A stretch of 64,000 nt of DNA from Octopus vulgaris. Its lineage: Eukaryota. This document shows, one piece after another, positions 61,540-63,250 of the stretch; position 1 is the stretch's first letter, and each line of letters opens with the position of its first letter. The notes under the pieces are model-generated. The model saw only the letters and a program-made list of their open reading frames with translations, searched no databases and was not told the DNA's origin. Location of the stretch: the NCBI GenBank assembly GCA_951406725.2, contig OX597820.1, positions 106,082,001 to 106,146,000 of the forward strand. The letters are read 5' to 3'. Made by a program: the position numbers and the translations under genes.

Positions 61540-63250
61540 CACGTTTTGTTTTGACTCCTCCTACATTTGTTATAAGTGACTGCATTACATAATAATAATA
61601 ATGATGCAATAGAAAACCACTACAATTTAACAACAGTTGGACTGTACAAATAGTTAGAACCAAAGGATGGAAGACTCATAAATGTCCTAAAGAAACATGG
61701 AAAGAACAGAAAAACCCACGAGCATATGGCGTAGTGGTTAAGAGTGCGGGCTACTTACCTCAAGATTCTGAGTTCGATTCCAGGCAGTGACCTGAATAAT
61801 AATAATAATAATAATAATAATAATAATAATAATAATAATAATAATAATAATAATGATGATGATGATGATGATGATGATGATGATGATGATGATGATGATG
61901 ATGATGATGATGATGATGATGATGATGATGATGATGATGATGATGATAATAATAACAACAACAACAGTAACAACAACAACATCAAAAAACACCTTAGGAA
62001 TGAGAACCCAGGTTCAAAATTTCCCCAAGACACCTGATGAAGGCTGGAGAGTATATCAGCCAAAACGTGTTAACAACAAACAAGATGAGGACAAATATTC
62101 ATCAATTGTAAATAATGTAAATAATGTACATAATTCCTCATCTCTAAAATACAGAACAACAGAAAAACTCTTCTCTATTCATAAGAAAGTGATAAAATAC
62201 AAACAGAAACAGGGTGCAATGAAACAGTAAATTTAGATAACAAGAAAACAAAAATGGTTAAAAAGACAGAGACAACATGAAAATAAAACTACGAGACATT
62301 CTTGAGAAGAAATGAAAAGGAAAAAGCCATCCCATGGCCAATACCTTGCAAGGCTTGGCAGAGAAGTACGCCAGAGTGAAAATCAACAATGGCTTAAAAG
62401 TTCTGGCCTAAAAGCAGAAATAAAGATACTGGTCCTTGCTGCATAAGACCAGTGTTTGACCACAAATAACTATACAAATAAAATCATGAGAATGGATCCA
62501 ACACCAAATATTAGATGTACAACCATCAAAATGAGATAGTTAGCAACATCATTTCTGGTTGCTCAGTCCTTACCAAATACACAGACGTAATCATTTTGGC
62601 AGCTACTTCCACTGGGCAACATACCAACACTTCAATGTAAAAGCAAATGAAAAGTGGTATCAGTTTGACAGTGACCCAGCCACAATAATCTTAGACATGT
62701 CCATCCAAATTGACAAAGAAATCTAAGCATGCCATCCAAACATAATAAAAGACAGATAGATGTTGTAATCAGTTCTTATGAAAATATGGATCTCAAATTT
62801 TGGCACAAGGCCAGCAATTTTGGGGAGGGGTTGATTACATCTATCCCAGCACTCAACAGTACTCATTTTATCAACCCCAAAAGGATGAAGGGCAAAGTTG
62901 ACCTTGGTAGAATTTGAACTTGGAATGAAAGATGGAGAAAATGCCACTAAACATTTTACTCAGCGTGCTAATGATTCAGCTATCTCACTGCCTTCCTTCT
63001 TCCGAAAATATTGTTTGGAAGGAGATGGAGAAACTGTCAAAATACAAGAATCTTGACATGGTAATATTCAAGATGAGGGGAATGAAGAGGAAAATGGTTT
63101 CATTAGTAACTGGAGCATTAGGCATGATTTAGAAAAATATCGAAAAAAAGAAATTGAAACCATACCTGGGCTCACAACACTACAAAACTGTCCAAAAGTA
63201 AATAGCTCTGCTAGGAATAGCTCACATCTTGCACAAGACACTGTCAATTT
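61540..63250 (+). mobile_element. Decayed R4/Dong-like RLE non-LTR element 3' region, with SINE insertions
   Basis: HGQY, WLKSSGLKAE...LAA*DQCL.TNNY, IISGCSVL and KEMEKLSKYKNL...LVTGALGMI. Confidence 0.7.
61716..62157 (+). mobile_element. Full-length tRNA-headed SINE with an internal microsatellite and hammerhead motif (62029-62071)
   Basis: 11-bp direct repeat AACAGAAAAAC at 61705-61715 and 62158-62168. A box TGGCGTAGTGG, B box GAGTTCGATTCC, (AAT)n(GAT)n(AAC)n, then GACAC-CUGAUGA-A-GGCUG...CAGCC-AAAA-CG-UGUU. Confidence 0.8.

Follow-up and report, generated by a model that had tools for sequence, protein, structure and literature searches.

A SINE-like repeat of Octopus vulgaris is the solo pseudo-LTR of an autonomous Penelope-like element and carries a likely internal Pol III promoter

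Introduction

The Penelope-like elements (PLEs) Poseidon_Ac of the green anole (PMC11167929) and Pen2a of Adineta (PMC3846280) are described as having a single reading frame with a reverse transcriptase (RT) plus a GIY-YIG domain at the C terminus, a pseudo-LTR that comprises a hammerhead and the start of this frame, and a palindrome at the 5′ end. A tail of 30–40 nt on one arm, an inverted 5′ copy and a short target duplication are further described features, and all of these recur in the octopus family reported here. The octopus family differs by a head with A and B boxes, an (AAT)n stretch within the pseudo-LTR and the lack of TTTT on the coding strand, whereas the available descriptions of the two elements give TATA/Inr-type promoters and no tRNA head.

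Other described repeats combine some of these parts. In the schistosome repeats SM-alpha and Sj-alpha (PMC6765202, PMC8490949) a Pol III-type promoter is followed by a type I hammerhead, and both are dispersed like the octopus unit. According to these descriptions SM-alpha is non-coding and spreads from tandem multimers cut by the active ribozyme, whereas the octopus unit belongs to a coding element, is found mostly in the form of inverted pairs and has ends that do not coincide with the cut site. The metazoan non-LTR retrozymes (bioRxiv 10.64898/2026.07.22.740005) share a type I hammerhead related to that of PLE pseudo-LTRs. They are presented as non-coding tandem arrays, whereas the octopus unit encodes a PLE N-terminus and formed no head-to-tail arrays in the loci read. 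The TRIMp3 elements Helenus, Ajax and Cassandra (PMC10886601) resemble the octopus family in having a Pol III promoter derived from a small RNA, for which an origin by SINE insertion was proposed, in their terminal repeat, and in leaving SINE-like solo repeats; they are described as non-autonomous LTR elements of 311–1263 bp, whereas the octopus family is an autonomous coding PLE of about 2.6 kb. In the same source, autonomous non-LTR retrotransposons appear as Pol II transcripts, with Pol III limited to short non-coding passengers.

No description of a PLE with a tRNA-derived head, or of an autonomous retrotransposon read by Pol III, was found in the literature searched, which consisted mostly of titles and the starts of abstracts. 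As far as this search reaches, a tRNA-derived promoter in an autonomous element, together with a matching loss of terminators across the gene, would be new. Surveys of octopus repeats (PMC13282606, PMC8967140) count Penelope and SINE families; their accessible text does not mention ribozymes, and their libraries may include the family.

Results

Structure of the repeat unit

The window, that is the whole 64-kb stretch of DNA analysed, contains two insertions of the family (Table 1). The longer one is bounded by an 11-bp direct repeat (AACAGAAAAAC), which is a genuine target-site duplication. After removal of the element and one repeat copy in silico the flanks join in one frame as a relic of a Dong/R4-like LINE (blastx E 1e-19 against Dong/R4-like LINE frames in the sample, with just 8 codons left of the junction), and a nucleotide-level match spanning this empty-site junction was not found. 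The earlier note had taken everything within the 11-bp repeat as one mobile unit, and both the in-frame empty site and the flank duplications of the family described below agree with this. The insertion host (61560–62700, plus strand) is a decayed 3′ region of such a LINE with the motif KAE..I.AA.DQ.L.T.NY, split by the element.

Table 1 Features of the two insertions in the window
Feature	Position	Strand	Remark
Target-site duplication, left copy	61705–61715	+	last C doubles as the element's first matching base
Pseudo-LTR 5′ end: short palindromic leader and tRNA-derived head	61715–61794	+	head 61720–61794
A box	61727–61737	+	inside the head
B box	61772–61780	+	inside the head
Microsatellite spacer, (AAT)20(GAT)31 and further AAT/AAC	61795–61979	+	between head and ATG
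Pseudo-LTR 3′ part, 178 nt	61980–62157	+	ATG at 62000 is its position 21; first 53 PLE codons
Minimal type I hammerhead, PLE type	62029–62071	+	broken in the 61705–62168 copy
PLE tail	62125–62157	+	the roughly 30–40 nt that separate the two 3′ ends of the family; left limit approximate
Target-site duplication, right copy	62158–62168	+	matches 61705–61715
Second insertion, 8-bp flanking repeat	51734–51741 and 52085–52092
Second insertion, inverted arm: head and (AAT)23, without 3′ part	51742–51880	−	repeat also written (TTA)23
Second insertion, direct arm: head, (AAT)9, 3′ part without its first 40 nt and without tail	51884–52089	+	hammerhead C15.2 → T

An identical order of parts had also been noted at 51889–52090. 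The order indeed agrees; the copy itself is one arm of a head-to-head pair within the second insertion (51734–52092). As had been stated, spacer length varies between the copies, from (AAT)9 in the direct arm of the second insertion to (AAT)20(GAT)31 and more in the longer one.

Rfam returned nothing for the whole window at gathering level. At E ≤ 10, eight loci and the stretch 61600–62300 gave neither a tRNA nor a hammerhead, only matches driven by the microsatellite. On the minus strand the GAT/AAC microsatellite at 61915–61986 scores as Rfam mir-598 with 30 bits against a cut-off of 69. The high mir-598 counts given for the giant squid may be the same kind of artefact; giant squid hammerhead counts are given in PMC6962438. 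Other repeat families of the window form tandem duplications of 229 bp (53785–54199) and 137 bp (36443–36715).

Abundance and insertion pattern

A systematic sample of 140 stretches of 10 kb each, spread evenly over 12 large contigs (1.4 Mb; the genome comprises 2.8 Gb in 227 contigs) yielded 27 clusters, 26 of which carry head or 3′ part. From this sample about 52,000 loci were estimated for the genome (95% range 34,000–76,000), which confirms a high copy number. The copies are about 88% identical to the family majority. Within the systematic sample the 3′ part lies downstream of 13 of 19 heads, and a head lies upstream in 13 of the 19 3′ parts that reach their start, with about 0.005 expected by chance. 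Head and hammerhead tail, whose mostly independent occurrence the earlier note would have taken as refutation, are thus linked in both directions. The family was also present in assembled contigs of four public runs with four organism labels from 3 studies (30,133, 18,407, 13,558 and 1,654 on-element counts), and in all four a loose end leads out of the UTR into the terminal part of the endonuclease frame.

Among all fetched loci 68 units were classified, other shapes being left unclassified: 61 inverted pairs and 7 single arms. The systematic sample alone gave inverted pairs in 9 and single arms in 2 of 11 units. Exact flank duplications of at least 9 bases (up to 16) accompany 28 of the 61 inverted pairs, compared to 0.7% of 1198 mismatched flank pairs, as well as 2 of the 7 single-arm units, one of these being the locus 61705–62168. 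The tail is present on exactly one arm in 60 of the 61 inverted pairs, and the 3′ ends of the arms form two groups (134–157 and 176–181) about 30–40 nt apart. The family therefore shows marks of EN+ PLEs, namely an inverted 5′-truncated copy beside the insertion and a 30–40 nt tail at one end only. Inverted pairs, one-sided tails and target duplications are indeed ascribed to PLEs (PMC8557442, PMC3846280).

Assignment to a Penelope-like element

Among the first 30 loci, one (L023) carries a GIY-YIG-type frame that ends just before the head. A search with this stretch gave 3520 candidates, and in all 40 scored places the frame runs into the head. In 30 loci picked on the frame, including the query's own locus, the head follows the GIY-YIG frame at a fixed distance without exception, and the 3′ part comes next after the head in 26 of them. 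Two longer copies, L296 and L297, show Pfam RVT_1 upstream (E 2.7e-6 and 5.5e-10), with a score below the curated cut-off for L296 and above it for L297. The longest open frame has 569 aa and runs from RT into the GIY-YIG-type end; 2914 relatives of the protein were found at E ≤ 1e-20. Pfam GIY-YIG was scored in one relative (P0069) and not in the family's own copies, two fragments of L023 remaining unrecognised. A search against solved structures gave weak RT matches only. By eye, in comparison to the CCHH endonuclease motif of the Penelope/Poseidon clade as described in PMC8557442, two Cys residues lie inside the GIY-YIG core and two His residues later, and there is no upstream CxxC finger.

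In L262, L301 and L302–L312 a frame opens at the ATG of the 3′ part, crosses the hammerhead and the tail and joins the RT frame. L305 and L310 have the order head, AAT, ATG, hammerhead, tail and frame, without a UTR before the head. The N-terminal peptide encoded by the 3′ part and the N-terminus of an 847-aa relative share 50% identity over 52 aa (pairwise E 3e-13). The pseudo-LTR thus holds the first codons of the frame, a feature of EN+ PLEs. The layout of the whole element (about 2.6 kb), as assembled from overlapping copies, is head, (AAT)n, ATG, hammerhead, tail, RT, GIY-YIG, stop, a 30-nt UTR and the head again; among the loci examined, none combined the two pseudo-LTRs with an unbroken frame in a single copy. 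Since the head recurs after stop and UTR, the short unit is both start and end of the element. We are highly confident that it is the pseudo-LTR of an autonomous EN+ PLE, probably of the Penelope/Poseidon type.

The earlier note had regarded the unit as a free-standing tRNA SINE like SM-alpha. This has to be revised: the head belongs to an autonomous PLE and the 3′ part encodes the PLE N-terminus. The unit was also compared to the class of tRNA-derived SINEs (SINE2). Instead of a non-autonomous family apart from its partner element we found the head in the autonomous element itself, and instead of a 3′ end shared with a LINE and formed by poly(A) or a simple repeat there is a fixed PLE tail inside a reading frame.

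A cluster of protein relatives (P0006, 53% identical), with members annotated in the barnacle Amphibalanus amphitrite, is nearer to the octopus protein than most other matches. The closest relatives of the protein, P0001–P0007, are 53–68% identical to it.

Hammerhead motif

In the majority of 175 arms the motif reads GACAC, CUGAUGA, A, a stem II of 5–6 bp, GAAA, CGUU and GUGUU. Core and stems of this family majority are intact, and the earlier concern that the consensus core might be defective does not apply. Individual arms retain core and stems in 33 of 175 cases; losses are mostly at CpG sites or due to a 3-nt deletion, which is present in about 50 of the 175 arms. The copy in the longer insertion has G12 changed to A (62062) and the 3-nt deletion at the cleavage site, and is thus predicted to be inactive. 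Of the hammerhead noted earlier, the motif itself is therefore intact in the family majority and broken in this copy, while the copy of the second insertion carries a change at C15.2. The match to the 847-aa relative covers the residues for which the intact cleavage site codes, and this intact form is therefore likely ancestral.

The 5′ ends located inside the 3′ part (58 ends) are evenly spread and show no excess at the ribozyme cut site. Thus, the ribozyme does not appear to set insertion ends, and ribozyme-defined 5′ ends were rejected. Membership in the SM-alpha-like or non-LTR retrozyme class was likewise rejected in view of the coding 3′ part, the inverted pairs and these 58 ends. Cleavage is reported to be dispensable for insertion in vitro (PMC11167929).

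Judged by its sequence, the family hammerhead is an ordinary minimal, dimer-type PLE motif. With the minimal metazoan PLE hammerheads described in PMC4209133 and PMC6765202 it shares type I topology, a 5-bp helix I, an unpaired base 5′ of stem II, the lack of loop 3, and the palindromic AACGUU, which would form helix III only in the dimer. It differs by its stem II of 5–6 bp, compared to 7–8 bp in those descriptions.

tRNA-derived head and 5′ limit

The majority of the head contains an exact A box and an exact B box, which bears out the earlier reading as a tRNA head. Among 35 tRNA genes of the genome representing seven amino-acid types, the best match was tRNA-Arg(TCG) with an alignment score of 62; 1000 shuffles compared to any of the 35 tRNAs reached a maximum of 56. 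ARAGORN at default settings called no tRNA gene in the window, and the head majority was called at the 70% threshold only.

Of 84 head matches whose selection involved neither the head nor the frame, 61 extend to the head start. Of these, 56 stop at reference positions 27–57 and 5 continue into the UTR; seven of the stops (27–39) are due to an inverted arm that matches the hairpin. The outer 5′ limit at reference 41–45 lies 11–15 nt before the A box, which starts at 56. A Pol III start is expected 11–15 nt before the A box. Furthermore, a TATA-like word precedes the 5′ limit by 23–30 nt, and a hairpin of −12.5 kcal/mol spans the junction of UTR and head. TATA/Inr motifs together with 5′ palindromes are described for Adineta pseudo-LTRs, in PLEs without tRNA heads (PMC3846280); the 5′ pile-up is therefore not specific to Pol III.

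Depletion of T-runs on the coding strand

From head to tail the unit contains no TTTT. A majority of the remaining frame was built over 2272 nt at a depth of at least 7; its frame changes twice, and codon nulls were applied piecewise. It contains no TTTT either, with 2.7–4.6 expected under four codon nulls (P 0.004–0.05), so that this count by itself is only modestly significant. In the majority, the depletion is far stronger for windows in which T fills at least 4 of 5 positions: 3 were found compared to 20.6 expected (0.15 of expected, P 0.0005). Over 73 raw segments 88 such windows were counted against 374 expected; the family is one evolutionary sample and its raw copies are therefore not independent.

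The corresponding T-rich ratio is 1.11 in 62 other long frames of the same genome and 0.88 in 26 composition-matched ones, and among 20 frames of at least 1 kb the family's four long copies rank lowest. Other PLE groups of the genome have ratios of 1.9, 1.7 and, for a third group over 1.7 kb, 0.48. This third, PLE-like group (L102:9284–10000 on the minus strand, L060 and L107) is distant from the family and has 8 such windows compared to 16.7 expected over its 1.7 kb, and no TTTT on the coding strand. As relatives from other organisms, 80 loci with 27–50% identity to the query were taken from metagenome contigs of partly shared assemblies, 74 of them with at least 900 aligned bases. These 74 PLE stretches have a median ratio of 1.3 and a minimum of 0.32, one being without TTTT; the 0.15 of the octopus family is below all of them. 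An A and B box pattern downstream was present in none of 46 relatives with downstream sequence, compared to 15 of 30 in the octopus family. G-rich words are also low (0.33 in the majority, 0.60 pooled, 0.72 in controls), and codon bias for Phe alone was not significant (p 0.24).

Short copies compared with ORF-linked copies

Arms from short copies that reach the head start (63) and arms linked to the ORF (30) share a common majority, except that the 3-nt indel, which is found in both sets, differs in frequency and that the alignment is poor over a stretch near the tail. Four columns, the 3-nt indel included, differ at p<0.01 and only by degree; a fixed diagnostic difference between the two sets was not found. 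The intact hammerhead form, as judged by this indel, is present in 46 of 63 head-start and 12 of 30 ORF-linked arms (p 0.003). Both sets were chosen by similarity searches, and the proportions are therefore not genome-wide. The spacer has a median of 50 nt in the short copies and of 20 nt in the ORF-linked ones, in keeping with lengthening at insertion or later. The A and B boxes kept in the short copies and the absence of TTTT make their transcription possible.

Discussion

We interpret the unit as the solo pseudo-LTR of the autonomous element, whose tRNA-derived head probably acts as an internal Pol III promoter for the element RNA. That Pol III produces some transcript of the family seems somewhat more probable than not to us from the sequence features. 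Whether it would also read the full protein-coding mRNA is evenly balanced. Chances are likewise about equal for and against the history that this suggests, in which an autonomous retrotransposon would have captured a tRNA-derived promoter, gone over to Pol III and purged terminators from its 2.4-kb frame, SINE-like stubs arising without a SINE.

The element RNA would start about 13 nt before the A box, at the head of the upstream pseudo-LTR, and extend across the frame as far as the downstream pseudo-LTR; because no terminator lies on the coding strand, the frame could be read by Pol III over its whole length. By analogy to the anole Poseidon in vitro (PMC11167929), the protein would nick both strands of AT-rich DNA, and reverse transcription would begin at two internal sites about 30–40 nt apart, early in the frame; two such starts are the explanation given there for the tail of PLE arms. 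Priming in the downstream repeat would yield frame-bearing copies. Priming in the upstream repeat would copy from tail to head only and could account for tens of thousands of SINE-like stubs, among them the unit at 61705–62168, without a separate SINE master. The microsatellite likely lengthens through slippage during or after insertion. A Pol III RNA has no normal cap, and its translation would need another route.

The main rival accepts the same PLE pseudo-LTR and takes the head as a fossil SINE insertion, with Pol II starting from the TATA-like word where the frame of the upstream copy ends. The 5′ pile-up would then mark the Pol II start or the boundary of a palindromic pseudo-LTR. The position of the TATA-like word and the hairpin at the UTR-head junction agree with this, as do the TATA/Inr motifs and 5′ palindromes of the Adineta pseudo-LTRs (PMC3846280) and the description of non-LTR retrotransposons as Pol II transcripts (PMC10886601). 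Nevertheless, we consider a fossil head less likely: it explains neither the loss of T-runs over the whole strand, seen in 0 of the 74 related stretches, nor the exact A and B boxes of the majority, and stalling at the hairpin predicts cDNA ends at its 3′ foot (about reference 58), whereas the ends reach 41–45.

Two further readings concern the short copies. They could form a true SINE with a tRNA head and a PLE-derived 3′ end, transcribed by Pol III from masters of its own and mobilised in trans through the PLE protein. Such a family would account for their excess over ORF-linked copies (56 versus 5), the retained boxes without internal TTTT and, in the selected sets, the more frequent intact hammerhead. 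However, the autonomous element itself includes the head, and a fixed diagnostic difference, as expected of separate masters, was not found between the two selected sets. The N-terminal frame of the short copies stays open, with commonest indels of 3, 9 and 18 nt, a weak argument in view of shared ancestry. Moreover, anole Poseidon RNA is reported to need the first 172 nt of the reading frame, beyond the start site at 111–118 (PMC11167929), and by analogy solo copies may miss part of the binding site. On balance we regard a true SINE as improbable. An accidental neighbourhood of tRNA SINE, microsatellite and PLE stub between A-rich repeats, for which the A-rich flanking repeat and the 6 of 19 sampled heads without a downstream 3′ part could be cited, has a negligible probability; it is refuted by the order and spacing fixed in searches of the own genome, the linkage in 13 of 19 heads, target duplications far above control and the in-frame empty site.

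If Pol III does read the PLE frame, this natural 2.6-kb Pol III mRNA for an RT-endonuclease would break the division between Pol II and Pol III, and a protein-coding retrotransposon read by Pol III would be very unusual. Direct tests would then become possible, both of translation of PLE RNA without a cap and of the part played by the hammerhead. The family would also offer a defined start site for a PLE, a group whose cycle is poorly understood. Even with Pol II, internal priming would turn a PLE pseudo-LTR into an abundant SINE look-alike. AAT microsatellites and hammerhead motifs spread with the family, which would likely be filed wrongly, as a tRNA SINE, by automatic annotation.

Some single loci deserve mention. 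In one case (L292) telomere-like TTAGGG units lie between head-to-head arms; the reverse transcriptases of PLEs and telomerase are akin. L302 and L303 (G000:C26), 16 kb apart, have near-identical 5′ regions of the element and an identical flank, which indicates local duplication after insertion. Partial tandems, in which a piece of the frame start is directly followed by a new 3′ part, were seen in L306, L307, L309 and L312 and fit either insertion into copies of the element itself or template switching on them.
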